From: Naegleria gruberi
Lineage: Eukaryota
DNA: 64,000 nt
Assembly (NCBI GenBank): GCA_000004985.1
Contig: GG738873.1
Reading direction: 5' to 3' (one strand)
Each line of letters opens with the position of its first letter. Positions within the stretch are counted from its first letter, which is position 1. The notes beneath the pieces are model-generated. The model saw only the letters and a program-made list of their open reading frames with translations, ran no database searches and was not told where the DNA came from. Positions 7,468-54,700 of the stretch are shown here, in pieces. Both the position numbers and the translations under genes were made by a program.

Positions 7468-9225
7468 ATGTTCTCCAATAGGAATGAATCACATGTCGTC
7501 TCGTACACAATAGTGGCCATGTGGATTGCAATGGTGGTGGGATGTTGTGCCTCTCTAGTGATGGCCGCCTCACCTACTGAATTAATTGTTAGTAAGCAGG
7601 CCATTCAATCACAACTTGCAGCTTTGCAAAAACAATTAACGGATGTTAGATTGGCAAAATATACCTTGTCAGGATTGAAGGAAGCAACTGGAATTATTTC
7701 ATCAAATTCCATTTCTGTCAATGGTGTATCATCTTTGGATGTGGATTCCCTTGGAGCAGAAGTTTCTGATCAATATCAAGAATTGGAAAGACATGAAAGA
7801 TCTGTGTTATTGAAAATGGCAGTTGTTCAAAGAAGTCTTGAAGTTATTACTGTCAATATATCCATGTCTGGATATAATCCAATGCTAAAGAGAATTGCTT
7901 CAAACATATATGGAACAACATACATTGCACCAAATGGAAGTTTATTTTATTATGGCGCAATCAATTCTGCTCTTCTAAATGGAAGACCTGGATACGTTTC
8001 TGGTTCATATATTCAAACTTATCCAACTGCTGTTGACATGTCTCCTTTGGGAGGTGATGTTGTAACTCAAGTTTATGGAGGAAGATCATACTTTTATGCG
8101 GTAACCTCTAAGGGAGACGTATGGCATTGGGGAGGAAATGATGGCACCATTGGTTCAATCTGTTCTTGTGGTCCACAGGCATCAGCTGGTTCTTCATATG
8201 TATTGAGAAAACTTGATTTTGGACTTATTGGTAAGGCCGTTATGTCAAAGAAAATTGTTTGTGATCAATCAATTGATAACAACTACGGTCAGTATGGAAC
8301 CTTTGATTGTTTCATGCTTTCAATGGAAGGGGAGCTTTACTTTATGGGTGTGTGGGTTTTCGACGGTAATAGTGGTTGGTCAATTAGATCAACGTACAAT
8401 TCAAACAAGGTCAGAAAGTTAAAGATTCAAATTAATGGTGTTGAAAAATTCGCATCTGACTTGGCTGTATCTCAAACAGCTGTTCCGGCTTATTCTGCTA
8501 TTGCTGGAGGAATTCTTAGAAATGGTGCTGCTATCTGTGTTATTGACAGAGACAATGCAACCAATATTTATTGCACAGGTGATAACAACGGGTAAGTACT
8601 TCTTTTTCAGTATGATTTTAATCATTTATTTAGTGGTCAATTTGGAGATGGTTCAATTGCTCCAACAAATATTCCATTGACTTTGGATATTGCGTCTACA
8701 AGTTGGGTCGTGGCCAAGACGCAAGCATCGTCTTCAGGTGAGATTTTCTCTCAAATTTATGGAGCCTTGAAAACTCTGTATGCTGTTGGTGCTACAGGTA
8801 AGGTTCACTCATGGGGATCAACTGGTACATTGTTGGCAAGAGTTGCTACCGAATCAAATGCCAAGATTGGTAGAACAACCTTCTCCAGCTATTTTTCAGT
8901 CTCAAAGATTTGCACCTCTCCTGCAACAGACATTGTCTTTTTGGTTAGTTCTGCAAATAATGAGGTATATGTTTTGGGAGCTCTGAATGGAGACAATTTT
9001 GACTATCCTTATCAACCACAAGCATTCAAGGGAAAGCAATTTGTTGATTGTGAAGTCAATGAAAATAATGTGTTTGTCCTCTTTGCTAATGGACAAGTAT
9101 ATGCAAAGGGTAGAAATGATGCTGCACACTTAATGGTTGGTTTCACAACACCTTCAGTTACTGGTAATCTAATGGGATTAGTCTACCCATTGACTGAATC
9201 ATTCATTCCTGTATACTATCAATAA
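7468..9225 (+). CDS. Paralog of the secreted RCC1-like propeller protein. Two exons, join(7468..8591, 8634..9225), with a 42-nt intron 'gtaagtacttctttttcag...atttatttag'
   Basis: ATG at 7468 with a hydrophobic N-terminus ('VVSYTIVAMWIAMVVGCCASLVMAAS'). Motifs 'GDVWHWGGNDGTIG', 'IYCTGDNNG|GQFGDGS', 'GKVHSWGSTG', 'GQVYAKGRND'. The donor gtaagt at 8592 and acceptor tag at 8631-8633 restore the frame; exon 2 runs to TAA at 9223-9225. Same architecture as 5355-6959. Confidence 0.7.
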
Positions 9226-17927: not shown

Positions 17928-20900
17928 TTATACCCAAGTATTATAGCTTACACCTCTTGTTATAAAATCACCAATATCATCTTCTTCTGCATCCATATTA
18001 AAGTCCTCTGTGGTTGTTGTAGGTGTTGAATCAATTGAAGAGTTGGTGTTAATTTTTTCGAATAAATCTTGTAAAGTGCTATCTCTACTTGTGTTATTAT
18101 CGTAAAATACATATTTTCCAACATTATTTTTCTTTTTTCTTCTAATAAAATACCATCCAACACCAGCTACAAGAGTGGCACAAAACGCTACCACCAAGAG
18201 TAAACCAATTGAGCCACCTACAATGTAAGGTAAATAATCAATTTGAGTGAGTGAGAAGTCTGATTTTGCACAAGTGACACAAACTTCCATCATACTACTC
18301 ACAGTTAATTCAGGAATTTGAGAGATGCCAGAAAGTAATTGAGCGCATGAAAAAGCTTGTCCAATTCCAAATTGATATCCAGTTGGTTTGGCAAGAATTT
18401 TGGAATTATCAGAAACAAAATTAAGACTACAATCAATCATATCAAGATTAATATTTTTCAATTCCCATTTCGTTCCCTTCTCTGTTAATTTCATTGAAAT
18501 TCTGTAAGAAACACCTGAACTGAATAAACAAGAGGCGGATGATTTCATTCCACTTGATAATTCACCTCCTGATAAAACTTGTTTTCCATTTTCAAAAGAT
18601 AATCCACCAAAGAATGTTCCATTATTCTTTTTAGAAATCCAAAATTCAATTAAATTACCATTTTCAATATTTGAGAATGGTGATAATTTAAAATCAAGTG
18701 ATACAATATTACTGATATCATGTAAATCTGATGATGCAACAACTTGTCTAATTGGTTTGTCTGTACATTTTGATTTGTTCAATTTACCAATATTCATTTT
18801 AATGATCAAAGGTGGTTGAACTGTTTCAGTTGTTTCTTGTCTTTGAATGATTGGAGGTGTTGTATCTTGATCTGGAATATCTTCTGGAGGTGAAATACTT
18901 GTATCAAATTTATCCAAAGAAGTAACTTTTACAACTTCTGGATCAACATATCTGATAAATAATTTGGTATCATAATTACTCGAAATTGAATCTTGAATCA
19001 AAGCTGCTCTTATATTCATTATGGAATCACTTGTTCCCAATAATGGAAGTTTAGCTGAACAAAATGTTGAATTGAGAACTGTGCATGCAATTTGAGTTTC
19101 TTCAGTGGAATATTGTTGACGAATGAAAAGATTGACATTATTGGTTGGTGGGAAGAATGTTGCCATTGCAAGAATCCTATCACCAAAATAAGCTTGTTTT
19201 GGTAAAACTTTCAATAAATCAAATCTATACAATGTCAATTCGGTATCGGTTGAAATTGGTATTGGATCTGATGTTTCACTAATTAATTCAATTTGAACTG
19301 AAACTTTAAATGAATCCTTCATTACCAAATCTTGGGGAAAGTTGCTTATCAAATCCTTTGCATTAACGAATGGCTTGAATGTAGTTCTTGTTCTACTTCC
19401 TGAGGTTTGAACTGGTAAACGAGCAAGAATCAAATTAAGAGGATCATATTTGAGAATTAAATAAGGTCTTGTTCCTGGTAAAACATAATTTCCTTCCAAA
19501 TAAATTGGAATTGAACCAGTCACTGGAACATATAATGGATAAATCTTTCTAATAGATAAAACTGTTGCCTCACTTTGATCATTATTAATATAAGCAATAG
19601 GTTGGAATTTTGTTAATTGAGTACTTTGATCAAAAACTGATGAATCTGGAGTTAATTGAGAAACTGCAATAATCAAAGATACATCTGTATTCACATTGGT
19701 CACTGTAATCTTTTCAGTATCTTTCGTGAGAACAACCAAATCATTCTTATTAACAACAAAGTTTGAATCTGAGGCTAATTCATTGAATTCTGGACTTGAT
19801 GAATCAATATCTGGAACAATTGTACTGATAGTTGTTGTTTGTTGATCACTCGATAATAAATATTGATCTGGATGATCATATAAAACAAGTGTAAAATATT
19901 TCTGAGTACTTTGAGGAATGACAATTTCTTTTGGGGTTTCATTTGGTGCTTCAATATTAACTGATACCAATAAACTTGAATTTGAAGTTCCTTCTTTGAA
20001 GAAGGTGAATGTTGTTGTATTGGTTGATGGATTGAAAACTTGATTTCCTTTATCAATATCTGTGAATGAAATTGGTCCCTTATCAAAAACTGATGAAATA
20101 TTTGCTTCCTTACTTGATGTATCAATTTCCAAGATTGTAACATTCGTTGAATTATCTTTCAATGTGATACCAAGTAAATCACCATTTGGATTATCAATAA
20201 TTTTGACAAGACCATATGTTGCATTATCCATTGTATTTATAATTGGAATAATCATTTGAGTTGCATTACTGAACTTGTCAATCTTCCAAATAATTAAAGA
20301 ATTTGGAATCTTACTCTTATATAATAAGGTATCAAAAGTTAAAAATTTGTCACCACTTTCAGTATTTACATCTGTTGTAATAGTGTAATATTTCAATAAA
20401 TTACTATTAGTAACATTGGATGGAATACCTTCTAATAAAGTTGTACTTTGTAATATCAAAGATTTACCACAAACAGTATCCATCAACGATTTTTGTAAAT
20501 AAATGTTAGAATCTATCACTGTGATTTGTTCTGCTGGTACAAATGAACCTTTACACAATTCAGTTGTGGTTTGATATTGACATAATTGACCAGTAAATCC
20601 ATCATGACATTTACACAAGTTACCTTCAATACATTTACCATTTCCTCCACAAACACTTGAATTAATTCCAGGTGTACCAAAACAAACTGGAATGGAGCAA
20701 TTCAATCCAATATAATTCTCCAAACATGAACAAGTATCATTTGAAATACAAATTCCATTTCCAAAACATGTTAAATTAGATGTTTGTTCAACACCAAAAC
20801 AGTACGTTTTAGGAATTGATGGAGCTGTTGGATCATTATTTCCAGAATTAGATGTTGGTGTTGTAGTATTAAGAGTTTCGTTTGGAGTAAAATGATTAGA

Positions 20901-23900
20901 ATCAATTGTTGAATTAGATGCGTTACTTGAACTGGTTGAATTGTTAGAACTCTGAGAAGTATTAGATCCATTATTTGAACTGGTTGAATTGATAGAATTA
21001 TTAAATCCATTATTTGATTCAGTAGTATTGTTGGATGAATTTGAGCTATTGTGTGATAATGTAGAATTGTCAGACATTGAAGTAGTACCATTAACTTGAC
21101 TGGAATTATTGCCTGTTGGTGACGAATCGTCAATTGTACTGTTATTAGAATTATTAGAACTATTGGTATTACTATTTGAACTATTGGATACACTTGGATA
21201 TGAGTTATTCATTGAATTAGAGATGGTTGAATTATTAGTTTGTGAAGAAGTATTATTAGAAACTAGAATTGTACTATTTGAACCATAGTTGGTTTCATTG
21301 GTGGAATTAGAAGTATCATAATTGGAAGTTGAGTTATTCAAGACATTGGAGGAAAGATTTGATGAATTCTGAGAAGTGTTGTTACTATTAGTAAATGTTC
21401 CATTACTTGTATTGATAGTAGTAGAATTAGAAGTAATAGTAGAATAGTTTCCATTAGAATTAGTAATATTACTTGTAGAACTATTTGTAGAAATGTTACT
21501 AAAATTCAAAATATTAGATGAATTATTCGATAGCGATTCAGTTGTGGAATTGGATATCACACTTGATTGATTTGAATGACTACTTCCATTATTGATATTA
21601 CTTGTTGAATTAGTTGTGTCAATAATTGAATTATTACCACTACTTGTTGAATTATTTTGATTAATAGTACCATTTATACCATGATTATCAATAGAGGTAA
21701 TGTTTGATGAGTCAGAGTTGTTCAGCAATGAACTGTTACCATGAGAATTAGTTACATTAAATGTTCCATTACTTGAATTATTGACAGTAGAATTAGAGTT
21801 ATTTCCATTCGAATTAGAATTATTGGTAATGTTGGAAGAATAAATAATGGATCCATTTTGAACACTTGTTTGATTCTTGTTGAGAGTTTCATTAAAAACA
21901 TTGGTTGTGTTTGTAGCTCCATTACTTGTTGAATTATTTTGATTAATAGTACTATTTATACCATGATTATTTGTTGAATTGGAATTATAATTCCAGGTAG
22001 TATTATCATTACTTGAATTATTGAGAGTAGAATTAGTGAAATTAGAATAACTATTCGTTGTAGAACTATTGTAAGAAGAATTAATGGTCGAGTTAGACGT
22101 TGCATTATTGTTTGTGGAATTTTGAATCATTGTGTCATTACTCATTGATGTATAGTTATTAATAGTATTGCTACTATTTACATTAATTAGAGAGTTTGTA
22201 GAATTAATTGTTCCGTTTTGAATTGTTGTGGAGTTATGTCCTTCACTTTCTTGATTAGTATTGTTGGTATTAGTACTATTGGAAGAATAAATAATAGACC
22301 CATTTTGAACACTTGTTTGATTCTGGATGATAGTTTCATTAACAACATTGGTTGTGTTTGTAGAATTAACCGTTGCAGAATCAAGTGATGTATTGGACGA
22401 ACCACTTTGATTCTTAATAGTTTCGTTGTAATTACTCGTCTGATTAAGCGTTGAATTTGTTGAACTTTCGCTTGTGTTATTAAGACTTTCTGAACCAGTT
22501 AAATTTGATACCACCTGAGAAGTGTTTAAACCATCAGTTGATGTTTCATTAATACCAATAGTATAGTTTGAATCTTGAGTGCTATTTTTAAAATTGGTAG
22601 AAGAGGTAACATTCATAACTAGAGTTGAATTGAGTCCACTATTTGATGTATCATTTCTATTGTTTGAAATGGAAGTTTGATTACTTGAAACAGTATTATT
22701 ATTTTCAAGAGTTTGATTATTTGTCATGGCAGTGTTATTTGAAACAGTATTATTAGAACCTAATGTATCTACTATTCCTGTACTATTTGTTTCATTTTTT
22801 CCAAAGATTGTTTGGTTATTTGAAATGTTAGTTTGATTATTCAATGAGGTATTGTTTGATGAACTGATAGAGGTATTACCACCTAATTGATCTGTATTAT
22901 TTTGTAAAGTGCTAGAATTAAAGTTAATGGTGCTATTAGAAATGTTACTGCTATTTGATATAATTCCATTCGAAGAATTTGAATTCAAATATGAGGATGA
23001 ATTATTTTCAAGAGTTTGATTGTTTGTGATAGCAGTGTTATTTGAAACAGTAGTTCTGGATTCTCCTGTGCTATTTGTATCATTGTTTCCACTATCAGAG
23101 AAGGTTTCTGTGTTATTGTTTGAAGAAGTGTCATTTGTTGAATCGCTGCTTGTACAATTAGTAGAGCCAGTAGAGGTTCCTGAAAGTGAACTATTTGATG
23201 ATGTTGTGTTTTGAGAGCCCAATGTTGAATTGTTACTTGCTGTATTAGATACTGTCTGATTATTACTTCCTTCAGAATTTTTGTCCACATCATTGCTACC
23301 CTTACTAATGGAGGATTCATTAGTTTTAACTTGATATATAGCATCATCAAAATAGAGTGTTTTAGGGTTTGGCAATAAAACTGTGTTGATCTTTCTTTCA
23401 ACTGGTTCAATTAATTTATCAGAAGGTGTAAGTATACTTGAACCATCAGCTTGTGAAATAACTATAGCATTATCAGTTTGGTAAACTCTTGTAGAATTTT
23501 TTAAACTCATCTTTGTGTTATTATAATACATAGCTAGTTCAGTATCTGAGGAAGTCCCATTAACTACAACTGAATAGAAGAAAGATCCCTCTTCATTAAC
23601 CACTACAACACTTTCATCAAAACCATCAAAGATAAAGAAGTAAGGAATTGCATTTGGGTTATTTGCTATTTTAAATGATGAAACAGTGTTTGAACCTCCA
23701 GTTAATGATAATTTTTGAATGGTTTGAACTTGTGATTTACTCTCTTCGATAATTGGCATGTAAAATTCTAAAACACCATTCTTTCTAAGAAGAGGAGTAC
23801 CATATCTTATTTGCTCTGGTGTAAAGACACCTGGACAGTATGAATATCTAAATGGTACATTAAAGTCATTTGGGAGATAATAATAAACAATCAATTGATT

Positions 23901-26900
23901 TCCATCCAAAACTAACGCATAGAAGTCTTCTCCACTTGAAAGAATTCTCGATGTGGCGTTATTTGTTGGAATAGTGAGAGTCACATTTACAGGAACAGGG
24001 CTTGTGGGGTTTACAATAAATACATTAGGCACTGGTTCATCAATTAAGGAAGTATCAATAGTGATAATAGCCGTATCATTCATTTTCTGGGTTTTCACTA
24101 ACTTATCGAGAAAAGAATCTGTAGTGCCTGGCATTGGTCTAGAAATAGTCAATTCTGTAAGATTTTGTTTCTTGTAAGTGAAATAGTAGCCGCAAACACT
24201 AATTTTTCTTATAGTTAAAGTTAGTAAAAACTTGCTATTATACTTCTTTTCAAGATTGAGAACAAAATCTTCAAACTGACCATCGGGAGTACATATAACA
24301 CTTCCATTAGAACCAGTAGAGTTGGATGATCCATTTGAGTTGTAATATGTTGTTGTGTTGGAACTTTTTGAATTGTCTACGTAACTCGAATTGTTTGTTG
24401 AGTCAAGATGAATAGGTGTGTTGCCACATGTTGTACAATTAGTTATTGTTGTATTGTCATATGTACAATTAGTAGTTGTGTTGTCAAATGTTGTACAATT
24501 AGTAGTATTATCATTGGCAACAGGAGGAATCTTAATAACATATTTTTCACTATCATAAAAATAGTAGGAAGGAGGTGGCAAGTCTGGTGATTTCTTTTCG
24601 TTGGATGATAGATCACTTGGGGAAATAAATAATATTTGGCTAGTTTGAAATGCATAAACAGTAACGAACTCGTTATAGTAAATACCAATGGATATATCTG
24701 TTTGGAATGCGGTAAGTAAATATCTTTCTGTAGCAAATGAAAAATGTTCCCAAGGCCAAGGGATTGTTGCCAATTTACGTACTTCGAAAATCTGAGATAG
24801 AGAGTAGACATTAATGCCCTTTTCACTGTATGTAATTATTCTTTCCTCTGTACCATTAAAAATTGAGAAATATGGTATTATCTGTGGATCATTGGATATT
24901 GTAAAAAAATCCAATTTTTCATCATATTGATTCAAGGATAGAATAAGAATAGTTTGATTTGATCCTTCCTCGATAATTGGCATGTATACATTGATTGTGC
25001 CGTCACTTCGTACTATAGGTTGTCCGTATCTTATTAGGTCTGGAGTGAACAGTGTATTACTAATTGAGGAAGATTTGTATTTCTGCTTATCTGAGTTAAA
25101 TCTTTCTATTAATAGATTGTTGTCATTCAAATTCAATACAAAATACTGAAGACCGTTGCTTAGTAACCTTAATGATCTTGGAGAGTTTGTTGGACCTCCA
25201 GTGGTTAAATAGTTTTGAAGATGTAATTCTTGTAGAGACCAGATTCCTATTGGAGAAATAGATGAAATGTAAAAGACAGGTTGTGTAGATAGGTCATAAC
25301 TTGCCCATGACTGATCAACGGTAACCAATAGTGAGCCTTTGAATACCTGGTATGTAATGAGCTTATCCTTAAATGACTCATAAGAAACAGGATTGTTTTT
25401 AAATTTGGAAAGTCTTTTTTGCTCTGAGCTACTGGTTTTTTTTGAAGAACTGGTAGTAAAATTAATAACAATAGGTTCCATTGTGTAACTAAGGTCAGCC
25501 TCAAAATTTGTTTTAAGCCCAATATAACCACCCAAAAGGACTACTGTTGTATCTATTATCTGACATGAAACACCATAATATGGTGTCTTACATTTACATT
25601 TTTCCGTAATCTCATCACAATAACCATTTCCACTACAAACCAGAGAACTGTTTCCACTAATTCCCCTGCATGTTACCTCGTAGTCACACTTATCGCCTTT
25701 AAAAAACTTATAACAATTGCAGGTATCGTTTTTCGTGCACGAACCATGGCCACTACAAACTGTTGGATCAGCTGATTCTTTCCCAAAACACATTACAATG
25801 GGTTTGTTGAATATTTCTGACGGGGTGGAATATTTTGGAGAGTATTTCAAACCACCTAATGATCCAATAAATTGCCACAAAAACCCATCCTTGAAATTTC
25901 TTCCAATAGAAGCACTTTGAACTACTTTGTCAACAGTTGCGTTGGCTGAAAGAGTTATATTAGTGGATAAATAGCCTTGGTAGCTATAAACACGAGTCTC
26001 GAAAGTGTCAGTACCGTCCATATTTTGGTTTCTAGTAATCGTTACTTGATATGTACTGTTGACTTTAAGGTTTGGATCCAAAACCATACTTTTTCCTTCT
26101 GCAATAGGTGACAAATCCACAACCAAAAACTTTTCTGAGCTAATGAAAACTTTGAATCGGTTTACATAATCAAAAAGGGTCATAGCAGATTCAAGTGACA
26201 ACGGAGAAAAGTAGAAATTGAATGTAAACTCACCACTAAGTAGCAAGTAAATATTTGGATCCGTAATTGAGCAATACGAGTCTTCAGAAAGGGAAACAGA
26301 GAAGTCATTATCAAGGCCAGGAGTGAGCTTTACATTTTCACAAGGAAAAGAAGCACCAGTAAGTTTGTCAACCAGATACAACTTAACTGGCTCTCCCTTA
26401 TAAGAATCGCTTGCTGAAGAAGGTACGCTAAAATATGAGCTGTGAGCTGGAACTCCGTAATAAATGGCTTGCCCTATTCGAAATGATTCAGATTGGCAGC
26501 TTACATCGTTGAAAAAATCAATAATATTAGAACAAAAAGGACCATCATGCAAGTAACTGTACATAAGTAGAGTCTCCTTAGTATAATCTAATTTGTTGTC
26601 TAACATATCGTAACAATAACCGTCCTGTTTCATATTACAAAAATTACCCACTCTAGATCTTGTCGAGGTTGGTTTACATTCACTATCTGGTGAATCGCCA
26701 GTGTTTTCACATTGGCAAACATCTTGATCAGTACAAGTTCCTTTTCCGCTACACACTCCAGGCTCATCAGCAAAAATACCAAAACATGATTTTTGAGAGC
26801 TAGTCTGTAAAATAAGTGACAACTTTTCAATTTGAACATGTGGCTCTATGACAAACATGCTTGAGTTACTAATGAAATTTACAAACGAATCCAAAGAGGA

Positions 26901-27473
26901 GAATGAATTAATACGAGAATTAATGTATCCATTAAGATTCAAATACACGCTGTTCTGATAAATAGTTACTTCCAAATAATTATTAAAACTACCAGAGACG
27001 GACTCGATGGATATCCACTCATTACCATTAAATAAACTCAGGACAATTTTGAAATTGGCCATATCAATTTTTAAAACTGGATTTGATAAAACTGAACAAT
27101 CTCCATCTGAGGTTGTAAAGTTCAATGCAAAAGTCTCTGCCTTAATAATGTTCAACATGTCAATATTTGATGATATTACAATTCCTCCATTACTCGCAGT
27201 ATCATTTCTTAGATATTTACTTTCAACATTTCCATTATTATAGTTCAATCTGTTCCATATCCAAGACTGAACATCCAAATCAAATTTGTAATATATGTTT
27301 CCAGTAGAAGCGCCTTCAACAACACTCAAATTTCCCAATAACATTAAGGCTTGTAAACAGCACAATGTCATAATGATCAGCAGCAAACCACCATTCCTAT
27401 TCGCATGCCAACGCGATGAAGAGTTAATTTCATCTCCTCGCATTGTTGAAACATGCAACTGTTGGCTTTTCAT
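17928..27473 (-). CDS. Giant type I membrane glycoprotein, about 3180 aa and apparently intronless. It has a signal peptide, scattered EGF-like Cys modules, an internally duplicated domain of about 110 aa, an Asn/Ser/Thr sequon-saturated region of about 900 aa, and one TM helix. Its short cytoplasmic tail is conserved with the giant gene at 48788-64000
   Basis: First ATG at 27473 ('MKSQQLHVSTMRGDEINSSSRWHANRNGGLLLIIMTLCCLQALMLLGNLSVVEGA'). EGF-like 'CFGVEQTSNLTCFGNGICISNDTCSCLENYIGLNCSIPVCFG...'. TM 'IVGGSIGLLLVVAFCATLVAGVGWYFI'. Tail 'RRKKKNNVGKYVFYDNN...LQDLFEKINT...TTTT..DAEEDDIGDFITRGVSYNTWV'. Confidence 0.8.
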   Translation of the reverse strand: MKSQQLHVSTMRGDEINSSSRWHANRNGGLLLIIMTLCCLQALMLLGNLSVVEGASTGNIYYKFDLDVQSWIWNRLNYNNGNVESKYLRNDTASNGGIVISSNIDMLNIIKAETFALNFTTSDGDCSVLSNPVLKIDMANFKIVLSLFNGNEWISIESVSGSFNNYLEVTIYQNSVYLNLNGYINSRINSFSSLDSFVNFISNSSMFVIEPHVQIEKLSLILQTSSQKSCFGIFADEPGVCSGKGTCTDQDVCQCENTGDSPDSECKPTSTRSRVGNFCNMKQDGYCYDMLDNKLDYTKETLLMYSYLHDGPFCSNIIDFFNDVSCQSESFRIGQAIYYGVPAHSSYFSVPSSASDSYKGEPVKLYLVDKLTGASFPCENVKLTPGLDNDFSVSLSEDSYCSITDPNIYLLLSGEFTFNFYFSPLSLESAMTLFDYVNRFKVFISSEKFLVVDLSPIAEGKSMVLDPNLKVNSTYQVTITRNQNMDGTDTFETRVYSYQGYLSTNITLSANATVDKVVQSASIGRNFKDGFLWQFIGSLGGLKYSPKYSTPSEIFNKPIVMCFGKESADPTVCSGHGSCTKNDTCNCYKFFKGDKCDYEVTCRGISGNSSLVCSGNGYCDEITEKCKCKTPYYGVSCQIIDTTVVLLGGYIGLKTNFEADLSYTMEPIVINFTTSSSKKTSSSEQKRLSKFKNNPVSYESFKDKLITYQVFKGSLLVTVDQSWASYDLSTQPVFYISSISPIGIWSLQELHLQNYLTTGGPTNSPRSLRLLSNGLQYFVLNLNDNNLLIERFNSDKQKYKSSSISNTLFTPDLIRYGQPIVRSDGTINVYMPIIEEGSNQTILILSLNQYDEKLDFFTISNDPQIIPYFSIFNGTEERIITYSEKGINVYSLSQIFEVRKLATIPWPWEHFSFATERYLLTAFQTDISIGIYYNEFVTVYAFQTSQILFISPSDLSSNEKKSPDLPPPSYYFYDSEKYVIKIPPVANDNTTNCTTFDNTTTNCTYDNTTITNCTTCGNTPIHLDSTNNSSYVDNSKSSNTTTYYNSNGSSNSTGSNGSVICTPDGQFEDFVLNLEKKYNSKFLLTLTIRKISVCGYYFTYKKQNLTELTISRPMPGTTDSFLDKLVKTQKMNDTAIITIDTSLIDEPVPNVFIVNPTSPVPVNVTLTIPTNNATSRILSSGEDFYALVLDGNQLIVYYYLPNDFNVPFRYSYCPGVFTPEQIRYGTPLLRKNGVLEFYMPIIEESKSQVQTIQKLSLTGGSNTVSSFKIANNPNAIPYFFIFDGFDESVVVVNEEGSFFYSVVVNGTSSDTELAMYYNNTKMSLKNSTRVYQTDNAIVISQADGSSILTPSDKLIEPVERKINTVLLPNPKTLYFDDAIYQVKTNESSISKGSNDVDKNSEGSNNQTVSNTASNNSTLGSQNTTSSNSSLSGTSTGSTNCTSSDSTNDTSSNNNTETFSDSGNNDTNSTGESRTTVSNNTAITNNQTLENNSSSYLNSNSSNGIISNSSNISNSTINFNSSTLQNNTDQLGGNTSISSSNNTSLNNQTNISNNQTIFGKNETNSTGIVDTLGSNNTVSNNTAMTNNQTLENNNTVSSNQTSISNNRNDTSNSGLNSTLVMNVTSSTNFKNSTQDSNYTIGINETSTDGLNTSQVVSNLTGSESLNNTSESSTNSTLNQTSNYNETIKNQSGSSNTSLDSATVNSTNTTNVVNETIIQNQTSVQNGSIIYSSNSTNTNNTNQESEGHNSTTIQNGTINSTNSLINVNSSNTINNYTSMSNDTMIQNSTNNNATSNSTINSSYNSSTTNSYSNFTNSTLNNSSNDNTTWNYNSNSTNNHGINSTINQNNSTSNGATNTTNVFNETLNKNQTSVQNGSIIYSSNITNNSNSNGNNSNSTVNNSSNGTFNVTNSHGNSSLLNNSDSSNITSIDNHGINGTINQNNSTSSGNNSIIDTTNSTSNINNGSSHSNQSSVISNSTTESLSNNSSNILNFSNISTNSSTSNITNSNGNYSTITSNSTTINTSNGTFTNSNNTSQNSSNLSSNVLNNSTSNYDTSNSTNETNYGSNSTILVSNNTSSQTNNSTISNSMNNSYPSVSNSSNSNTNSSNNSNNSTIDDSSPTGNNSSQVNGTTSMSDNSTLSHNSSNSSNNTTESNNGFNNSINSTSSNNGSNTSQSSNNSTSSSNASNSTIDSNHFTPNETLNTTTPTSNSGNNDPTAPSIPKTYCFGVEQTSNLTCFGNGICISNDTCSCLENYIGLNCSIPVCFGTPGINSSVCGGNGKCIEGNLCKCHDGFTGQLCQYQTTTELCKGSFVPAEQITVIDSNIYLQKSLMDTVCGKSLILQSTTLLEGIPSNVTNSNLLKYYTITTDVNTESGDKFLTFDTLLYKSKIPNSLIIWKIDKFSNATQMIIPIINTMDNATYGLVKIIDNPNGDLLGITLKDNSTNVTILEIDTSSKEANISSVFDKGPISFTDIDKGNQVFNPSTNTTTFTFFKEGTSNSSLLVSVNIEAPNETPKEIVIPQSTQKYFTLVLYDHPDQYLLSSDQQTTTISTIVPDIDSSSPEFNELASDSNFVVNKNDLVVLTKDTEKITVTNVNTDVSLIIAVSQLTPDSSVFDQSTQLTKFQPIAYINNDQSEATVLSIRKIYPLYVPVTGSIPIYLEGNYVLPGTRPYLILKYDPLNLILARLPVQTSGSRTRTTFKPFVNAKDLISNFPQDLVMKDSFKVSVQIELISETSDPIPISTDTELTLYRFDLLKVLPKQAYFGDRILAMATFFPPTNNVNLFIRQQYSTEETQIACTVLNSTFCSAKLPLLGTSDSIMNIRAALIQDSISSNYDTKLFIRYVDPEVVKVTSLDKFDTSISPPEDIPDQDTTPPIIQRQETTETVQPPLIIKMNIGKLNKSKCTDKPIRQVVASSDLHDISNIVSLDFKLSPFSNIENGNLIEFWISKKNNGTFFGGLSFENGKQVLSGGELSSGMKSSASCLFSSGVSYRISMKLTEKGTKWELKNINLDMIDCSLNFVSDNSKILAKPTGYQFGIGQAFSCAQLLSGISQIPELTVSSMMEVCVTCAKSDFSLTQIDYLPYIVGGSIGLLLVVAFCATLVAGVGWYFIRRKKKNNVGKYVFYDNNTSRDSTLQDLFEKINTNSSIDSTPTTTTEDFNMDAEEDDIGDFITRGVSYNTWV
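20800..23300. repeat. Low-complexity coding DNA inside gene 17928-27473, encoding about 850 aa of near-continuous N-x-S/T sequons (Asn about 30%, Ser about 30%, Thr about 15%) with internal imperfect tandem repeats
   Basis: The translated segment 'NSTNNNATSNSTINSSYNSSTTNSYSNFTNSTLNNSSNDNTTWNYNSNSTNN...' shows recurring units such as 'NQTSVQNGSIIYSSN(I/S)TN'. Confidence 0.8.
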
Positions 27474-28961
27474 CTTGTGGCGCGACAACGGTTTATCTAC
27501 AGTTGAAGTGTTGGTTGTTCTTTTCTGTATAGTTTGTTATGAGAATTTTTTAAAAGGTGATATTGATTTTTTGGGTTGATATTTGGGTCTCTGTTCAGAC
27601 ATGTTTGAGCGCACTAAGGTGATGGATCACCGAGATCTGGAAAGATACTAAGCGCGAGCCTTATCATGCGTGGATTTTGGTGTGAGGCTCAACAAACTCT
27701 TTCAATTGCTGCATTGTTGTGAATGGTCTAGAATGATAACGTCCACTTCAAAAAAGGTCTATTCATTACAGTGATTACCGTAAATTGAGACACAAATCCT
27801 CACGCAACAACTGTTGCACATCAGCTAATAGCAGCAATACATTTTGATTCAATGGAGAATATTTAAAATTATGATGAATTTGATTTGATCCGAGGGATCA
27901 CGTTGCAGTTTCTCAATTTTTTCATCTAATAATATTTCCATGTGAATACTTTCAATGATGATTTTGTTGATGATCTTTAATCCTATTGTTGCTCTCTTAA
28001 GTCAGCTCATTCAATGAAATTAATGCTCATCTAGATAGATTATTACAATTTTTTCATCTTTAATTCTTTACATCAAAATATTTGACGATTTTTTGATATG
28101 GAAAGAAAAGTGATGAGTGAAATTTGATGATTTTAAAAAAATATTTTAACAAGAAAAATTTCATCAAATTCGCAACATGTTTCATCATGGATGATTTTCA
28201 AAGGCAATTCTTCATCACTTCCAAAACCATTTTCAACACAACATGATACGATCATTTGGAATGTATAGAAATTAATTTTATTAAATTTCAACATGAATTT
28301 CAAATTTTAAAAGGCAATGATTAAATTGATGGCGAGTCTTGTTCAATTGGAGAGGTAAAATTCACTTTATTGAATGATAATCATCAGAAATATAACAAGT
28401 AAATGGATGCCATTCTTTTACTTGAAATAGAATTTCATCAATTTATTAATTTTAATATTTTCATCATGAAAAACATCAGACAAGACAATAAGAAGACGAT
28501 GGGCATGTTCTAAATGTTCATTAACATCACCTCAGAAAGTTTCAAAACTTTCCATCAAGCACATGTAGAGTTGGAGAAGATAAAGTAAAATTTAATTTCA
28601 TCAAAGTGAAAAACACTTTTTGGTAAACCTGTTCAATTTCAAGAGGAGGCACAAGATTTGTTATTGTACCACATCATAAAGAATGTTTTGCCAATGTTTT
28701 TCGATTATTTTCCAGAGATGATAAAGTTGAATTTTCACATGCTTCCAAACATTATTCATTCATTATTTACTTGATAAATCTTCATCAGGACAATAATAAA
28801 TACATCACTTGGATGTTATCTAACATTACTATTCATCTCATTGTTTCACTCCAAAAGTTTTCCAAGATATCCAACAATCCTCCCAACAAGAATATTTTAC
28901 CATCATATTTCCAGCAAAGAGTTGTATGAATTTGATTTGTCTTTCACATTTTGATAAGAAT

Positions 28962-29080
28962 GGCTACGGCCATATCACGATGAATGCACCTCATCCCGTC
29001 CGATTTGAGAAGTTAAGCACCGTCGAGCCACATCAGTACTGAGGTTGGAGACAACTTGGGAACCTGTGGTGCTGTAGTCT
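28962..29080 (+). rRNA. 5S ribosomal RNA gene (about 119 nt), apparently intact
   Basis: 'GGCTACGGCCATATCACGATGAATGCACCTCATCCCGTCCGATTTGAGAAGTTAAGCACCGTCGAGCCACATCAGTACTGAGGTTGGAGACAACTTGGGAACCTGTGGTGCTGTAGTC'. Helix I pairs 5' GGCUACGGC with 3' GCUGUAGUC. The conserved 3' half 'GGTTGGAGACAAC..GGGAAC...GGTGCTGTA' closely resembles Dictyostelium 5S. Confidence 0.9.
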
Positions 29081-29085
29081 TTTTT
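29080..29085 (+). terminator. Pol III terminator T-run immediately 3' of the 5S gene
   Basis: 'tttttt' directly after '...gctgtagtc'. Confidence 0.7.
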
Positions 29086-29384
29086 GAAATCTTTCTCTTC
29101 TAAATAGATCAAATTCAAAGGAGATAAACAGATGGTCAGGTTGCAATCTTTTCTAAACAATAACTTACTGAACCAACAATCAATAGATTAGTTGCCTTCA
29201 CTGTTCATACAGTCGCCATATTCCTGGCAGGCTTCCCGTCCAATTAAAAGCTTAGTTTAAGCAGAAATAGAGAGAAACTCTCTAACCCTTAAAACCACAA
29301 AAAAGCAACTAAATAATGTTAAATTTAAAAGCAAAATTGATTTAAAAATTTATTCTTTTTAAGGAAATTTGATTTGTTTTTCAA

Positions 29385-29810
29385 TTATTTACGCTTGTAG
29401 ATATCAACTTTCTTATTCTTTCCACCTCGTCTATTCTTTCTATTTTTCTTTCTATAAGTATCAATTCTTCTCTTATTAAATCTTCTCTTCTTTCCATAAA
29501 CATCAATCTTCTTTCTAATAATTCTCTTCTTTCCAAATCTCTTCCATCCTCTTCTCTTTCTTCCATAGGTGTACTTGTTGAGCTTTCTATTGTTCTTTCT
29601 CTTCTTTAATCTGTATTTCTTGAGATTTCTCTTCTTGTTATTATTCTTTCTAATGTACAAGGAAAGTGTTGAGGCAGCAGTTGTTGCTTCTTCTGCAGAA
29701 ACTCCTGAAGTGAAGGAAAGTGCAAGAATGGCCAAAGTCAAGGCAATCAACAAGATTGAAATGAATCTTTTCATTGTTTTTTTGAGTGTTTTGTTCAAGA
29801 AGTGAAACAT
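29385..29810 (-). CDS. Secreted, extremely basic (Lys/Arg-rich) tandem-repeat peptide of about 130-141 aa. It has a signal peptide followed by four or more repeats of about 11 residues of the form x-D-x-Y-(G/R)-(R/K)-K-(R/N)-R. The real start is probably the second ATG at 29774
   Basis: 'MKRFISILLIALTLAILALSFTSGVSAEEATTAAS...YRLKKRKNNRKLNKYTYGRKRRGWKRFGKKRIIRKKIDVYGKKRRFNKRRIDTYRKKNRKNRRGGKNKKVDIYKRK'. The reading frame and most of the sequence are conserved in the diverged left-arm copy. An overlapping E/R-rich frame (29381-29566) lacks a signal peptide. Confidence 0.5.
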   Translation of the reverse strand: MFHFLNKTLKKTMKRFISILLIALTLAILALSFTSGVSAEEATTAASTLSLYIRKNNNKKRNLKKYRLKKRKNNRKLNKYTYGRKRRGWKRFGKKRIIRKKIDVYGKKRRFNKRRIDTYRKKNRKNRRGGKNKKVDIYKRK

Positions 29811-30464: not shown

Positions 30465-30545
30465 TGCAGAAGGTGGGATTTGAACCCACGAAGCTTGCGC
30501 AGTAGAACTTGAGTCTACCCCCTTTGACCACTCGGGAACCCCTGC
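30465..30545 (-). tRNA. tRNA-Leu (anticodon CAA) with a long variable arm
   Basis: Minus-strand sequence 'GCAGGGGTTCCCGAGTGGTCAAAGGGGGTAGACTCAAGTTCTACTGCGCAAGCTTCGTGGGTTCAAATCCCACCTTCTGCA'. Acceptor stem GCAGGGG/CTTCTGC, anticodon stem GTAGA/TCTAC with loop CT-CAA-GT, T-arm GTGGG-TTCAAAT-CCCAC, and a variable arm of about 12 nt. Confidence 0.85.
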
Positions 30546-48787: not shown

Positions 48788-51700
48788 TTAATTCCATACA
48801 GCATAACTATTAACCATAACATTAGGATCTGCATCATCATCATCAAATTCTGGCATAACATTTGTTGTTGTTGCTGTAGATGAGGACATTTGATCATCAG
48901 AAGAATTCATCTTATCAAACAAGTCATTCATTGCATCTTGTAAATCATCTCTGTTGTGGGCATAATCATAAACAGAATACTTGCTACTTCTCATCTTCTT
49001 TCTTCTGTAATACCAAATACCAGCAACAACGAATACCAATACTGTAACTATTAAAATAATTGCAACTGCACCAGAAATTGCTCCAGCAAGAATGGTTGTA
49101 ATATTGGAGGATTCCATGTTAGGTAATAAAGTGGCATGGGCAACACACTTTTGAACTTTACAAGCAGCCACAATATTGTACAAATCTGTTTCAATGTTAA
49201 TGGTTGGCTTATTTAGAATTTGAGTACAAGTTACACTACTTTCCAACCTTAATGTGTAATTATGAGAGAACTTTTCAATAAATTGAGGGTAAGTGATTGG
49301 GAGAATAAAAGAGTTAGAATTACAAATGGCATCTCCATTGCTGTCCTTGATTGTGTAAGAGAGAGTGGCTTTCCAATCCTTATAATCTTGAGAGGACCAT
49401 TCAGAATAATCTAATTGAGAGAAACTGTGTGTAACCTTCATATCTAACTTCATATTTTCACCTTCTTTAAAGTCACAACGAGTAGATATATTTTTGGTTT
49501 CAAATGAATGTACCCAAGTTACTTCAGAATAAAGANNNNNNNNNNNNNNNNNNNNNNNNNNNNNNNNNNNNNNNNNNNNNNNNNNNNNNNNNNNNNNNNN
49601 NNNNNNNNNNNNNNNNNNNNNNNNNNNNNNNNNNNNNNNNNNNNNNNNNNNNNNNNNNNNNNNNNNNNNNNNNNNNNNNNNNNNNNNNNNNNNNNNNNNN
49701 NNNNNNNNNNNNNNNNNNNNNNNNNNNNNNNNNNNNNNNNNNNNNNNNNNNNNNNNNNNNNNNNNNNNNNNNNNNNNNNNNNNNNNNNNNNNNNNNNNNN
49801 NNNNNNNNNNNNNNNNNNNNNNNNNNNNNNNNNNNNNNNNNNNNNNNNNNNNNNNNNNNNNNNNNNNNNNNNNNNNNNNNNNNNNNNNNNNNNNNNNNNN
49901 NNNNNNNNNNNNNNNNNNNNNNNNNNNNNNNNNNNNNNNNNNNNNNNNNNNNNNNNNNNNNNNNNNNNNNNNNNNNNNNNNNNNNNNNNNNNNNNNNNNN
50001 NNNNNNNNNNNNNNNNNNNNNNNNNNNNNNNNNNNNNNNNNNNNNNNNNNNNNNNNNNNNNNNNNNNNNNNNNNNNNNNNNNNNNNNNNNNNNNNNNNNN
50101 NNNNNNNNNNNNNNNNNNNNNNNNNNNNNNNNNNNNNNNNNNNNNNNNNNNNNNNNNNNNNNNNNNNNNNNNNNNNNNNNNNNNNNNNNNNNNNNNNNNN
50201 NNNNNNNNNNNNNNNNNNNNNNNNNNNNNNNNNNNNNNNNNNNNNNNNNNNNNNNNNNNNNNNNNNNNNNNNNNNNNNNNNNNNNNNNNNNNNNNNNNNN
50301 NNNNNNNNNNNNNNNNNNNNNNNNNNNNNNNNNNNNNNNNNNNNNNNNNNNNNNNNNNNNNNNNNNNNNNNNNNNNNNNNNNNNNNNNNNNNNNNNNNNN
50401 NNNNNNNNNNNNNNNNNNNNNNNNNNNNNNNNNNNNNNNNNNNNNNNNNNNNNNNNNNNNNNNNNNNNNNNNNNNNNNNNNNNNNNNNNNNNNNNNNNNN
50501 NNNNNNNNNNNNNNNNNNNNNNNNNNNNNNNNNNNNNNNNNNNNNNNNNNNNNNNNNNNNNNNNNNNNNNNNNNNNNNNNNNNNNNNNNNNNNNNNNNNN
50601 NNNNNNNNNNNNNNNNNNNNNNNNNNNNNNNNNNNNNNNNNNNNNNNNNNNNNNNNNNNNNNNNNNNNNNNNNNNNNNNNNNNNNNNNNNNNNNNNNNNN
50701 NNNNNNNNNNNNNNNNNNNNNNNNNNNNNNNNNNNNNNNNNNNNNNNNNNNNNNNNNNNNNNNNNNNNNNNNNNNNNNNNNNNNNNNNNNNNNNNNNNNN
50801 NNNNNNNNNNNNNNNNNNNNNNNNNNNNNNNNNNNNNNNNNNNNNNNNNNNNNNNNNNNNNNNNNNNNNNNNNNNNNNNNNNNNNNNNNNNNNNNNNNNN
50901 NNNNNNNNNNNNNNNNNNNNNNNNNNNNNNNNNNNNNNNNNNNNNNNNNNNNNNNNNNNNNNNNNNNNNNNNNNNNNNNNNNNNNNNNNNNNNNNNNNNN
51001 NNNNNNNNNNNNNNNNNNNNNNNNNNNNNNNNNNNNNNNNNNNNNNNNNNNNNNNNNNNNNNNNNNNNNNNNNNNNNNNNNNNNNNNNNNNNNNNNNNNN
51101 NNNNNNNNNNNNNNNNNNNNNNNNNNNNNNNNNNNNNNNNNNNNNNNNNNNNNNNNNTTTCTTTTGGTAAATCCAATGTTTGATGCAGTCTTCTTGATTA
51201 CATTCAACTTGATGAATGTATTCTTAACTGTATTCACAAGGTAAATAATATCGTCAACTTTAACAATACTGATCTTGTCAGAGTATTCGGAAAATTGAGA
51301 AATACTTGATGGGTAATTAGCAATTTGTTCAAACTTCATAGAATCTGTCCATAGATTGGTTTTGGAATCTTGTTGAGTAACATTTGCAATAAAGATCTTT
51401 GTTCCTTGATCAGTAATGGTGGCAATCAATATCTTGATACCTGAGGCTTCAGTAGCAGAGATTAGCGCTCTAGCGTTAGAAACTGCGTCCTTGTTTGGGA
51501 ATTCAACAGTTGATATGATTCTAACTCTAGCATCGAAGAAAATAAGGGTTGGTGTTAAGGTATATCTATTACTAGCTGTAAAGACAATTGAAGTAGTATT
51601 ATCAACAACAATATTCAAATCCTTAACTGTTTCTCTGTTGAATGTATGATTGTACAATCGTTTGTTGTCGTATAGGGTTGTCTTGATAATACTGTTTCCT

Positions 51701-54700
51701 GAGATATCTCTAGCAGATAAGGATTCATAGAATTCAATAGTAGTAACTGTAAAATTATTTGTGTTAATGGTAATACCATACAAAACAGAGTCCATAATAA
51801 AGATCTTATCAATTTGGTCTGCTTCAGTAAGGCTTGAAAGGTATTTCCAGTTTGAAATTGAGTCAACAATATCCATTTGTGTATAAATTAAAACTGAGAA
51901 ATCATCATAATTAATTACTGTAAAGTAATAAGTCCCATCAAATATTGTTGGAGTAGTAGATTTGATAGGAGATGAAGGTAAACCCAACTCGGAAAGTTTT
52001 TGGGAAGATATGACCACCAAATTACTGCATGCTACATCCATTACAATAATGTCAACCGATTTGGAAGTAACTGAAACAGAATTGACTGTAATATTGGAGC
52101 AAGACTTACTGCTGTCAAAATATTCACAATTCTTGCCGGTAAATTCTTGCTCACAAGAGCAAACATTAGGGAAAACACATACACCATGAGTGCTACAAGC
52201 ATCAGCCAAAGTCTTGTTAAAGCAAACAGGAATGGAACAATTTTCTCCTCTATAATCAGGCCTGCAAACACAAACATCTTGTGAGATACAAGTACCGTGA
52301 GCCGAGCAATTATTTCTATTGGCACAATCAAAGTATGAAGTAATGTTACATTCAATACCCTCGAATCCATAGTCACAAGTGCAATTGTTTGGAGCAGCAC
52401 AATATCCTCTATTACAAGCGTCCTTACCATACTTTTCGTAACAAATAACATACTGACATTCTTCTCCAGTATAACCTTCAGAGCATTTGCAATTATTGTT
52501 AGAAATACAAGCACCCCTGCCACTGCAAACTTGGCTATTATTGACAGATAAACCATAACAAGTATACCAATTACATGTATCAAAATCGTTACAAGTACCC
52601 TTCTTGGCACATACGTTTGGATCAGTGGCTGGTAGTCCATAACAAACCGGTGTAGAACAATTGGTTCCGATATAACCATTGCATTTACAATTGTCTGGAT
52701 AGGTACAATTTCCGTGTCCATTACAAACATTGGTTTCATTAGCTGGAATGTTATAACAAATAGTAAATTCACATTTTGGACCTGTAAAACCTTCACTGCA
52801 TTGACAGGTATCTGGCAAAGAACAAATACCACGACCAGTACAAACATTTTGAGAGTCTGAAGCATTAAAACCATAACAAATTGGAATGGAACAATCTTTT
52901 CCAACATAAGTTGAAATGCATAAGCATAAATCTGTATCGTTACAAATACCATGCCCATAACAAACAGTTGAATCATTTGAAAGAATGTCGAAACAATTTG
53001 AAACTTCACAAGCTGAACCAATGTATCCATTTGAACAAGTGCAATGGTTTGCATAATCACAGGAACCGCGATTGGAACAATCAGTAATATTGTTGACAAT
53101 ACAAGTCCAGTTTTGACAATTATTTCCAAAGTAGTTTGTTTCACATTCACAAGTATTATTGCCAATACATTTTCCTCTGGAGCTACAAACATCTGTTTCA
53201 TTACTTTCCACACCAAAGCAATGGTAGTATTCACAAACATCTGGTGCAATACATTTTCCAATTCTTCCACAAACAGTACTTGTATTAGATACCACACCAT
53301 AACAATTGGTAAGGGAACAGTCTGGAGCAAAGTACCCAACCTCGCATGTACAATTATTAGGTGAACCACAAATACCTCTTCCACTGCAAACTTCTGTTTG
53401 GGTGGAATCAAAGCCAAAGCAAATAGGAAGGGAGCAGCTTTCTCCATCATAAATAGGATCGCAAACACAAGTATCCTTATCCACACATAAACCATGTCCA
53501 GAACAAACATTTGAATCATTTGAAAGAATGTTGAAACAAATGGAAACTTCACAAGCATTACCGACATGTCCTTCTTCACAAACACAGTGATTTGCATAAT
53601 CACAGGAACCGCGATTGGAACAATCAGTAATATTGTTGACAATACAAGTCCAGTTTTGACAATTATTTCCAAAGTAGTTTGTTTCACATTCACAAGTATT
53701 ATTGCCAATACATTTTCCTCTGGAGCTACAAACATCTGTTTCATTACTTTCCACACCAAAGCAATGGTAGTATTCACAAACATCTGGTGCAATACATTCA
53801 CCAATTCTTCCACAAACATCTGGGTGAGTCAAACGTAATCCACCACAAGTTATAATTGAACAATCGACACCATCGGTATTGTTGTTACAAATGCAGGTAT
53901 CAGGAGCAACACAAACACCCTTAGAGCTGCAAACTCGTATGTCTGAAGAATTGAGACCAAAACACATAGGAATAGAACACACACTTCCAGTGAATGTGGA
54001 ATTGCAGCTACAGGTGTCATGAGAAATACATTCACCATTGTTGCTACAAACACCAGATTGGTTGGATAACAAACCATAACAAATTGGAACTTCGCAGTTA
54101 GAACCATAATAACCGTCATTGCAAACACAAACATCTGGTTCAGAACACAATCCGCTTGAAGAACAAACTGTTTGCTTGTCTGATGGAATTCCGTGGCAGA
54201 CAGGATATTGACATTCAGGACCACTGTATTGTGAAGTGCAATTACAAACGTTAACAGCAACACAATGACCATGACTATGGCAAGTACTGGAACTGTTGGA
54301 TGAAATATTAAAGCACTTATGGAACTCACAGTCAGAACCATCGTGTTCATTATCGCAAGAACAAGTGCTTTCAAATTCACAAACTCCAAAGCCACTACAG
54401 ACCGTTGTGTCATTACCTCTTTTACCATTACAAAGAACAAGGAAAATATCAGGCAATGCTTCACCCAATGAGAATTCTAAACTATACAAGGAGCCATCCA
54501 ATTTGGCATCAGAAACACCTGGTTCCGAACCAATTGTGTTTTGTTTTCCCTTGTTGAACACAGTATTTCTTATCCTCCAATCATCTAGCAAAGTTGAGTT
54601 TACTAGTTTTCTAGTACCATCAACAAACAGGCTAGTACCATGGTTTGTGCTCTTAGAGACAGCAACGGTGTGAATATTATTTTCAAAGGTATGTGGTATG

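Follow-up and report, generated by a model that had tools for sequence, protein, structure and literature searches.

An unannotated gene for a predicted secreted polybasic protein, a further member of a Naegleria-restricted family, near a chromosome end of Naegleria gruberi

Cationic host-defence peptides, such as the arminins of Hydra and the cathelicidin-derived PR-39, carry a signal peptide ahead of a mature region that is very basic and unstructured, and they belong to small, lineage-restricted multigene families. In dibasic-processed precursors, including preproTRH (KR-QHPG-KR), the FMRFamide precursors, the yeast alpha-factor, and the fungal Kex2-processed repeat proteins, a signal peptide is followed by a short peptide that recurs in tandem between K/R pairs in a variable copy number. 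The silaffin precursors of diatoms, of which Sil1p is an example, are secreted protist proteins with a signal peptide and tandem, highly basic Lys/Arg-rich units. Here, a gene for a short polybasic protein with a predicted signal peptide is described from Naegleria gruberi and compared with these systems. It lies in the window, that is, the whole stretch of 64,000 nt that was analyzed (GenBank assembly GCA_000004985.1, contig GG738873.1).

The polybasic gene and its chromosome-end setting

The window begins with a telomere of (CCCAAA)n at positions 1-335 (~55 copies), in the orientation expected for the left end of a chromosome, and it includes two assembly gaps (986-3123 and 49536-51157). Its genes are of eukaryotic type, among them RhoGAP, DEP+RGS, and RCC1-like genes and teneurin-type EGF arrays. 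Large secreted or surface EGF-rich proteins are encoded by genes neighboring the polybasic gene.

As the first-pass annotation had proposed, the (-) strand at 29385-29810 contains an open reading frame, which comprises 141 codons when counted from its first ATG. When the region was shuffled 2000 times with its dinucleotides preserved, no ORF longer than 112 codons arose. The second ATG, at 29774, is the start common to all relatives of the gene, and it gives an intact coding sequence at 29385-29774 (-) for a product of 129 aa, ending in a TAA stop. The in-frame upstream extension MFHFLNKTLKKT (29775-29810, (-) strand) is absent from every relative, all of which begin at MKR, and it is probably part of the 5' UTR rather than coding. 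The sequence 5' of the ATG aligned poorly with that of the closely related metagenome contig L003, and an AATAAA is present on the coding strand 31-36 nt past the stop codon. With either start, the protein had no exact match in a collection of 15 billion proteins.

The 3' part of the gene is included in an inverted duplication. A blastn comparison with the reverse-complemented right arm (27934-29598) identified the left, telomere-proximal arm at 3278-5044, with 86-97% identity in blocks. Left position 3278 corresponds to right position 29598 and marks the start of homology, the left sequence upstream of it being unrelated. Because the right arm terminates inside the coding sequence, with codons 1-59 of the gene outside the repeat, no more than the final 71 codons plus the stop are present in the left arm. 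These form a 5'-truncated relic at 3287-3502 (+), which contains neither a start codon nor a signal peptide. An earlier reading of the sequence, in which the gene was duplicated on both arms, is hence correct for the 71 codons and the stop, but does not extend to the start, the signal peptide, or the upstream region.

The relic is covered by a published gene model, NAEGRDRAFT_68479 (P0004, EFC43417, 110 aa), which sits on a 461,873-nt N. gruberi scaffold and is identical to the translation of 3170-3502 (+). Its N-terminus (MVMGFRHTQTQTQTHTQ...) starts from an ATG at 3170, runs through an interstitial telomere tract, and includes no signal peptide. The tract, ACCCAAACCCAAACCCAAACCC+ACACACA at 3191-3219, is located ~60 nt beyond 3278 and has the same orientation as the terminal telomere. 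The model is probably, or even very probably, an annotation artifact on a gene relic. It was present in the protein collection from which the intact protein was missing. From the match to this model, the window can be identified as the end of a scaffold of N. gruberi NEG-M.

A 5S rRNA gene is also found in both arms. The right copy, at 28962-29080 (+), is intact (Rfam RF00001, 101.9 bits, model positions 1-120); it is convergent with the polybasic gene and located ~300 nt from its stop codon. The left copy, at 3889-3973 (-), is a pseudogene (Rfam, 42 bits) with ~50 nt deleted internally, as right positions 28972-29021 had no counterpart between left positions 3958 and 3964 in the blastn alignment. 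The left polybasic copy is best read as a truncated relic of a subtelomeric inverted duplication, which also duplicated the 5S rRNA gene. Given the 5' truncation of this relic and its 5S rRNA pseudogene neighbor, the frame that it keeps open is little evidence of selection on the left copy.

A functional link between the polybasic gene and the 5S rRNA gene was considered and rejected: a 5S gene was absent from all three metagenome contigs that carry relatives, namely L003, where the relative has RCC1-repeat and TMEM120 neighbors, L001, and L004.

Family membership and the frame under selection

A word-indexed search with the right-copy protein returned five homologues, and an exhaustive profile search of 1.84 billion representatives returned the same set together with one additional protein, P0006. 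Only family proteins were retrieved by the family profile among these representatives. The relatives in N. gruberi include the 'predicted proteins' NAEGRDRAFT_71365, NAEGRDRAFT_68008, and NAEGRDRAFT_71069 and the first ~130 aa of NAEGRDRAFT_50395 (UniProt D2VQW0, D2VGK2, D2VQ94, and D2VKU9), while the truncated model NAEGRDRAFT_68479 and ENA metagenome proteins were also returned. The NAEGRDRAFT_50395 model has an additional NOT2/3/5-like C-terminus, and two neighboring genes seem to have been fused in it. The right-copy protein was 75-91% identical to the N. gruberi proteins P0001-P0003, with E-values from 6e-51 to 3e-30 at a query coverage of 100%, and over aligned columns its identity to the N. 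gruberi relatives was 78-91%. The signal peptide, an ASTLSLYI box, the [IVLF]DxY-(G)-basic repeats, and a C-terminus of VD(I/L)YKRK-stop are shared with these relatives; the right copy differs in having no annotation, in lacking the 'ID' of the first motif, and in being shorter by one Lys.

Metagenome sequences added both close and distant relatives. L003, a contig of 2292 nt, encodes a near-identical relative of NAEGRDRAFT_71365 between an RCC1-repeat gene and a TMEM120 homologue. L001 and L004, of 616 and 636 nt, encode a relative that is 43% identical by BLASTP and 57-58% identical over aligned columns. The gene caller had overrun the stop of this protein, of which the true end is VD(F/L)YKKK-TAG. 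The features common to L001 and L004 include the signal peptide MKR(F/I)(I/V)SILLIALTL... and an ASTLS(L/T)YI box, and a (K/R)(K/R)-[IVF]DTY-G-KK unit and the C-terminal (V/F)D(I/L/F)YK(R/K)K-stop are also kept, while the linkers are not alignable with those of N. gruberi. The two contigs differ from each other by 14 non-synonymous changes and one synonymous change, all within a cluster of about 20 codons, which may hint at rapid non-synonymous divergence of close variants. They come from different assemblies and share their 3' end base, 16 nt past an AATAAA; both are ~0.6 kb long, and the 5' end of L004 is Illumina adapter sequence. They look as if they may be derived from cDNA, in which case this relative would be transcribed.

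The mature net charge was between +32 and +44 in seven of seven family sequences. Since this charge is kept while the number of motifs varies from two to five and the linkers cannot be aligned, the polycationic character itself appears to be maintained. The right copy resembles the family over its full length and has the conserved signal peptide, the ASTLS(L/T)YI box, the [IVLF]-D-x-Y repeats, and the C-terminus, and on these features the gene can be placed as a further paralogue of an uncharacterized, Naegleria-restricted orphan family.

No relative of the family was found in Pfam above the cutoff or in the PDB, and the family locus tags had no mention in the searchable literature. The family profile also found no homologue in the proteomes of other sequenced Naegleria species, and any role would thus be lineage-specific and dispensable for the genus. 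When JGI metagenomes were scanned with family motifs back-translated to DNA, 600 matches to the pattern were obtained, of which not one was confirmed, and low-complexity masking may hide true ones. Several weak candidates were rejected. A Pfam match to DUF7813 (E = 0.0023, below the cutoff) appeared with the 141-aa form and was gone with the 129-aa form, and the sub-threshold matches to Sar8_2, Protamine_P2, LPAM_1, and Cytokin-bind, each in one member, were considered compositional or signal-peptide noise. Similarly, an identity as a protamine or another nuclear basic protein was dismissed, as the Protamine_P2 match of the one member was sub-threshold (E = 0.024) and a conserved ER-type signal peptide is present. 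The sole contig from a scan with a degenerate signal-peptide DNA pattern, L002, was a coincidence, being a high-GC bacterial sequence with a 251-aa protein that merely shares MKRFLSILLIALTL.

The first-pass annotation had proposed a protein under selection in the K/R-rich frame, as well as a dN/dS comparison of the two copies and of relatives, and this comparison favored the K/R frame. By the method of Nei and Gojobori, the K/R frame gave a dN/dS of 0.20 between the right copy and L003 (128 codons), and the frames shifted by +1 and +2 gave 1.09 and 1.48. Between the right copy and L001, the corresponding values were 0.31, 1.66, and 0.42. All indels among the right copy, the left copy, and L003 are of 3 or 6 nt. 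The K/R frame can hence be taken as the selected frame, under purifying selection.

The same earlier reading had pointed to a second, E/R-rich frame that is also open, and had raised a non-coding role of the purine-rich DNA. The second frame does exist in the right copy, where it is open for 61 codons (29381-29566), and an antisense frame is open for ~75 codons. A purine-rich non-coding element, or an E/R-rich protein as the real product, is nevertheless extremely improbable. The omega of the E/R frame was about 1.1-3.7, compared to 0.1-0.3 for the K/R frame, stop codons break the E/R frame in L001, the divergent relative, and all full-length members have the conserved signal peptide in the same frame as the basic region. 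Because of the dN/dS values by frame, the indels in multiples of three, and the stops in L001, both the non-coding and the alternative-frame readings were rejected as far as sequence comparison can do so.

A comparison of the two copies in the window gave 6.5 synonymous and 3.5 non-synonymous differences (omega about 0.1, only suggestive, as the changes are few and most are transitions), together with 6-nt and 3-nt in-frame indels. With L003 as the outgroup, four synonymous changes and no more than one non-synonymous change were assigned to the right-copy lineage, along with two in-frame deletions, which remove the first-motif 'ID' and one Lys. In the relic lineage, two changes are synonymous, and one codon was changed at two sites, from Gly to Asp. 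The frame is kept in the left copy, as had been noted earlier, but most of the synonymous changes fall on the intact right lineage. Hence, the signal of constraint appears to lie mainly with the intact copy.

These changes also bear on a reading of the right copy as a paralogue that has fallen silent or is in decay, with only other members such as NAEGRDRAFT_71365 being functional. It was not called in the reference annotation, one of its unique in-frame deletions took the conserved first-motif 'ID', and it lies within an inverted duplication in a rearranged subtelomere, of which the other arm is clearly degenerate. Nonetheless, it retains an undamaged ORF, complete with start codon, signal peptide, and C-terminus, the four synonymous and at most one non-synonymous changes in its lineage are accompanied by deletions that both stay in frame, and an AATAAA follows the stop at 31-36 nt. 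Small genes are also often missed, and the pipeline did call the truncated copy. Decay of this copy is thus hardly probable, and the right copy is almost certainly a real coding gene in the K/R frame, very likely functional, and missing from the published annotation. The reference annotation of N. gruberi would be corrected accordingly at this chromosome end, where an intact gene is missing while a relic is annotated with a telomere-derived N-terminus.

Signal peptide, composition, and repeats of the predicted protein

The first 27 codons (29694-29774, (-) strand) encode MKRFISILLIALTLAILALSFTSGVSA, which is followed by EE and has the n/h/c layout of a signal peptide: the residues MKR, an 18-residue core with a mean Kyte-Doolittle value of 2.75, and V-S-A at positions -3 to -1. 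The signal peptide claimed earlier is thus borne out, by a heuristic check on hydrophobicity and on the -3/-1 residues. Its residues M1-K2-R3, S6-L14, and others are invariant across the five full-length sequences aligned, and the whole region is near-identical in all full-length family members. The product likely enters the secretory pathway by means of this cleavable 27-residue signal peptide, and we infer that it is secreted.

The mature part consists of 102 aa (~12.8 kDa), with a net charge of +42 and a pI of 11.8. It includes 26.5% K, 19.6% R, and 10.8% N, and its five acidic residues occur only among the first few mature residues and as the motif Asp. The strongly basic composition reported earlier was recovered at a lower figure: K and R make up 46% of the 102 aa and 53% of the last 88 aa, compared to the ~55% given for about 100 aa. 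The hydrophobic content is low, and no amphipathic structure was predicted with confidence. From an alignment of five sequences, AlphaFold2 gave no confident fold (mean pLDDT 63, pTM 0.24, C-terminal half below ~55), the helices in the model being of low confidence.

Tandem Repeats Finder identified a 39-nt (13-codon) repeat at 29446-29535 (-), with 2.2 copies and 80% matches (...IDVYGKKRR / ...IDTYRKKNR), and a 42-nt (14-codon) repeat at 29570-29649 (-), with 1.9 copies, 76% matches, and no indels (NNNKKRNLKKYRLK / KRKNNRKLNKYTYG). Both periods are multiples of 3. In the protein, these correspond to degenerate repeats of 13-14 residues, each with an aromatic residue, in many cases that of [IVLF]-D-x-Y, and a Lys/Arg cluster after it. 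Aromatic residues are spaced about every 13-14 residues. The tandem repeats of x-D-x-Y-(G/R)-(R/K)-K-(R/N)-R described earlier are therefore present, while only three clear [IV]-D-x-Y motifs were found; a fourth, which is the first in order, is degenerate (KY--TYG) and lost its 'ID' through a 6-nt deletion. The C-terminus is VDIYKRK-stop.

The arrangement of the motifs resembles that of a multi-copy precursor of small peptides, which is the main rival to a polycation. In such a precursor, cleavage at dibasic sites by a kexin- or furin-like convertase, followed by trimming of the basic residues by a carboxypeptidase, would release [IVLF]-D-x-Y tetrapeptides as secreted signals, C-terminally amidated where a Gly follows the Tyr, and the polybasic linkers would be discarded spacers. 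Among the 24 motifs of seven family proteins, all are followed by at least two basic residues, directly or past one Gly; 20 are preceded by at least two basic residues, and in 13 the Tyr is followed by Gly. Motifs occur back to back in P0006 (KKRR-VDIY-KKK-FDTYG-KR and KKR-IDIY-KRKR-IDTYG-KK), and the motif copy number ranges from two to five across the family. Additionally, the motif Asp is the sole acidic residue within the basic region, and KRRIDTYGKK and KKVDxYKxK-stop are the best-conserved parts of that region in the distant relative. However, with a background of 43-47% K/R, dibasic flanks are not unusual by chance alone, and the motifs, being duplicates of one another, do not count as independent observations. 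The spacers of known precursors are not themselves polybasic, the first motif (in four such cases) is preceded by (H/N)-K-Y and has no upstream dibasic site, and the charge is kept in the L001/L004 relative with only two motifs (net +44), which points to selection on charge itself rather than to dispensable spacers. A proprotein-convertase P domain somewhere in Excavata has been inferred only (PMC2770060), and a search of the literature on a Naegleria amidating enzyme or convertase, and on Naegleria telomeres or subtelomeres, returned nothing usable. Overall, a peptide precursor appears unlikely, and its specific form, a TRH/FMRFamide-style precursor of tetrapeptide signals in a heterolobosean amoeba, built on [IVLF]-D-x-Y and an amide, is quite unlikely. 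If true, such a precursor would represent a TRH/FMRFamide-style peptide-hormone system far outside animals and fungi, with the copy number of the active unit varying between paralogues.

The extreme, conserved charge and the lack of a confident fold would also suit a structural or storage polycation, which neutralizes or cross-links a polyanion of the amoeba itself instead of acting on prey. Candidate polyanions include polyphosphate, acidic glycans of the cyst wall or surface coat, and nucleic acid, and the tyrosines could serve in cross-linking. An aromatic spacing of 13-15 residues in most N. gruberi members is consistent with this role, as is the presence of large secreted or surface EGF-rich proteins among the neighbors in the window. 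In contrast, the tyrosine spacing is not kept in L001/L004, where it is 21-38 residues, and no homology to a known wall or matrix protein was found in Pfam or the PDB. Proposed from composition, a structural or storage role is considered improbable.

Possible roles and comparison with known systems

The role proposed for the protein is that of a secreted polycation. The signal peptide would be cleaved in the ER to release the ~12.8 kDa protein of net charge about +42, which may be trimmed at its many dibasic sites and would exert its effect as a polycation either along the secretory or food-vacuole pathway or extracellularly. Its targets would be anionic surfaces, with the envelopes of bacterial prey as the most plausible ones, and it would bind them in the manner of a host-defence peptide. 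At the sequence level, the signal-peptide architecture (heuristic), the net charge of +42, and the pI of 11.8 are as expected for such a peptide. On the other side stand the low hydrophobicity and the dibasic bracketing of xDxY, which fits a multi-peptide precursor equally. The family profile search, Pfam, and the PDB revealed no similarity to any characterized antimicrobial or polyanion-binding protein. Judged from composition, action on anionic targets as an intact or trimmed polycation is a tentative proposal, and a specifically antibacterial role, drawn from the same composition, is more doubtful.

The present analysis defines a small family, found in Naegleria only, that has a signal peptide, a net charge of about +40, and no homologue elsewhere. 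The family may be regarded as a reasonable candidate for an amoebal antibacterial effector and, less likely, as a precursor of peptide signals. Either role, if true, would have some relevance to the interactions of protists with bacteria and to peptide discovery. Current understanding is not overturned by these findings, nor is a long-standing question opened.

Among the described systems, dibasic-processed precursors share with the family the signal peptide, the tandem short peptide, and the variable copy number; they also recall it in the K/R pairs around this peptide, which the K/R-rich background of the family may likewise give, and a Gly precedes the basic pair in about half of the family motif copies, as it does in those precursors. 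In contrast to them, the family linkers are polybasic with a conserved charge, and the first motif has no upstream dibasic site. The silaffin precursors resemble the right copy as secreted protist proteins with tandem basic units behind a signal peptide. However, silaffins are Ser/Lys-rich, are cut at RRIL/RRNL, and function in silica deposition, while the right copy includes no Ser-Lys units and no homology between them was found. To our knowledge, Naegleria makes no silica. Cationic host-defence peptides match the family in the signal peptide, the very basic and unstructured mature region, the small size and lineage restriction of the multigene family, and possibly the fast non-synonymous change hinted at by L001 and L004. 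They differ from the right-copy protein in that no sequence homology between them was found, and in that the latter is much longer and more highly charged (+42 over 102 aa) than is typical, low in hydrophobic content, and devoid of an anionic pro-region beyond the residues 'EE'.

Telomere-like sequences and a gene model at the scaffold end

The window opens with a terminal telomere array (positions 1-335) of about 55 CCCAAA units, corresponding to TTTGGG on the G strand, within which CCCAA variants are occasionally scattered. The start of the window is therefore a chromosome or scaffold end. No paper stating the telomere repeat sequence of N. gruberi was found in a literature search. An interstitial telomere-like tract, composed of 3.5 copies of ACCCAA followed by ACACACA, was located at 3191-3219. 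It is oriented like the terminal telomere and lies approximately 60 nt distal of the truncated copy of the gene (3287-3502, +), next to the assembly gap at 986-3123. This tract could be the trace of a former, healed terminus of the chromosome that later gained about 3 kb. Alternatively, it could be a scaffolding artefact beside the gap.

The published gene model NAEGRDRAFT_68479 (EFC43417; 3170-3502) has a translation that crosses this tract, read as MVMGFRHTQTQTQTHTQ..., and continues into the gene relic. The model is probably spurious. Whereas it has been published, the intact paralogue at 29385-29774 carries no annotation.

Family members and a look-alike outside the window

Another member of the family was contained in NAEGRDRAFT_50395, a gene model of 565 amino acids located outside the window. 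Its residues 1 to ~132 constitute a family member with a signal peptide and five xDxY motifs, followed by a region rich in Q and N. Judged by eye from the sequence, the C-terminus appears to resemble a NOT2/3/5 domain. Annotation has probably merged two neighboring genes in this model.

Two metagenome contigs, L001 and L004, encode close variants of the divergent relative, which differ by 14 non-synonymous changes and one synonymous change (omega ~3.3), grouped in about 20 codons close to the C-terminus. Either diversifying selection or gene conversion by a paralogue could account for this pattern, and there are too few changes to decide between the two.

A further candidate came from the high-GC, bacterial metagenome contig L002, where 645-1400 (-) encodes a protein of 251 amino acids whose signal peptide, MKRFLSILLIALTL, is a near-exact match to that of the Naegleria family. 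The protein was rejected as a relative, as it is unrelated beyond the signal peptide, and the match is therefore a coincidence. Coincidental matches of this type could mislead pattern searches.

Genes surrounding the peptide gene

Two giant intron-less ORFs were found on the minus strand, at 17928-27488 (3,186 amino acids) and at 51160-63894 (more than 4,245 amino acids, extending into an N gap). Their products are surface-type proteins in which teneurin-type EGF arrays occur alongside long tracts rich in N, S and T. Within the latter ORF, a tandem array with a 15-nt unit lies at 59597-60069 and repeats of about 1.3 kb lie at 60120-63209. The region 5355-9225 encodes a cluster of RCC1-like beta-propeller proteins, whose N-termini are signal-peptide- or transmembrane-like and whose leaders resemble coiled coils; here, 7144-8595 and 8677-9225 look like a single gene interrupted by an intron or a frameshift. 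An RCC1-repeat gene was also observed directly upstream of the P0001-like paralogue in the metagenome contig L003.

A tRNA-Leu(CAA) gene of 81 nt (30465-30545, -) lies approximately 650 nt upstream of the start of the peptide gene. A complete 5S rRNA gene (28962-29080) is convergent with the peptide gene at a distance of 300 nt, and the other arm of the duplication includes a 5S pseudogene (3889-3973) from which about 50 nt have been deleted internally. Hence, 5S genes in this region are scattered and subtelomeric instead of forming part of an rDNA array.
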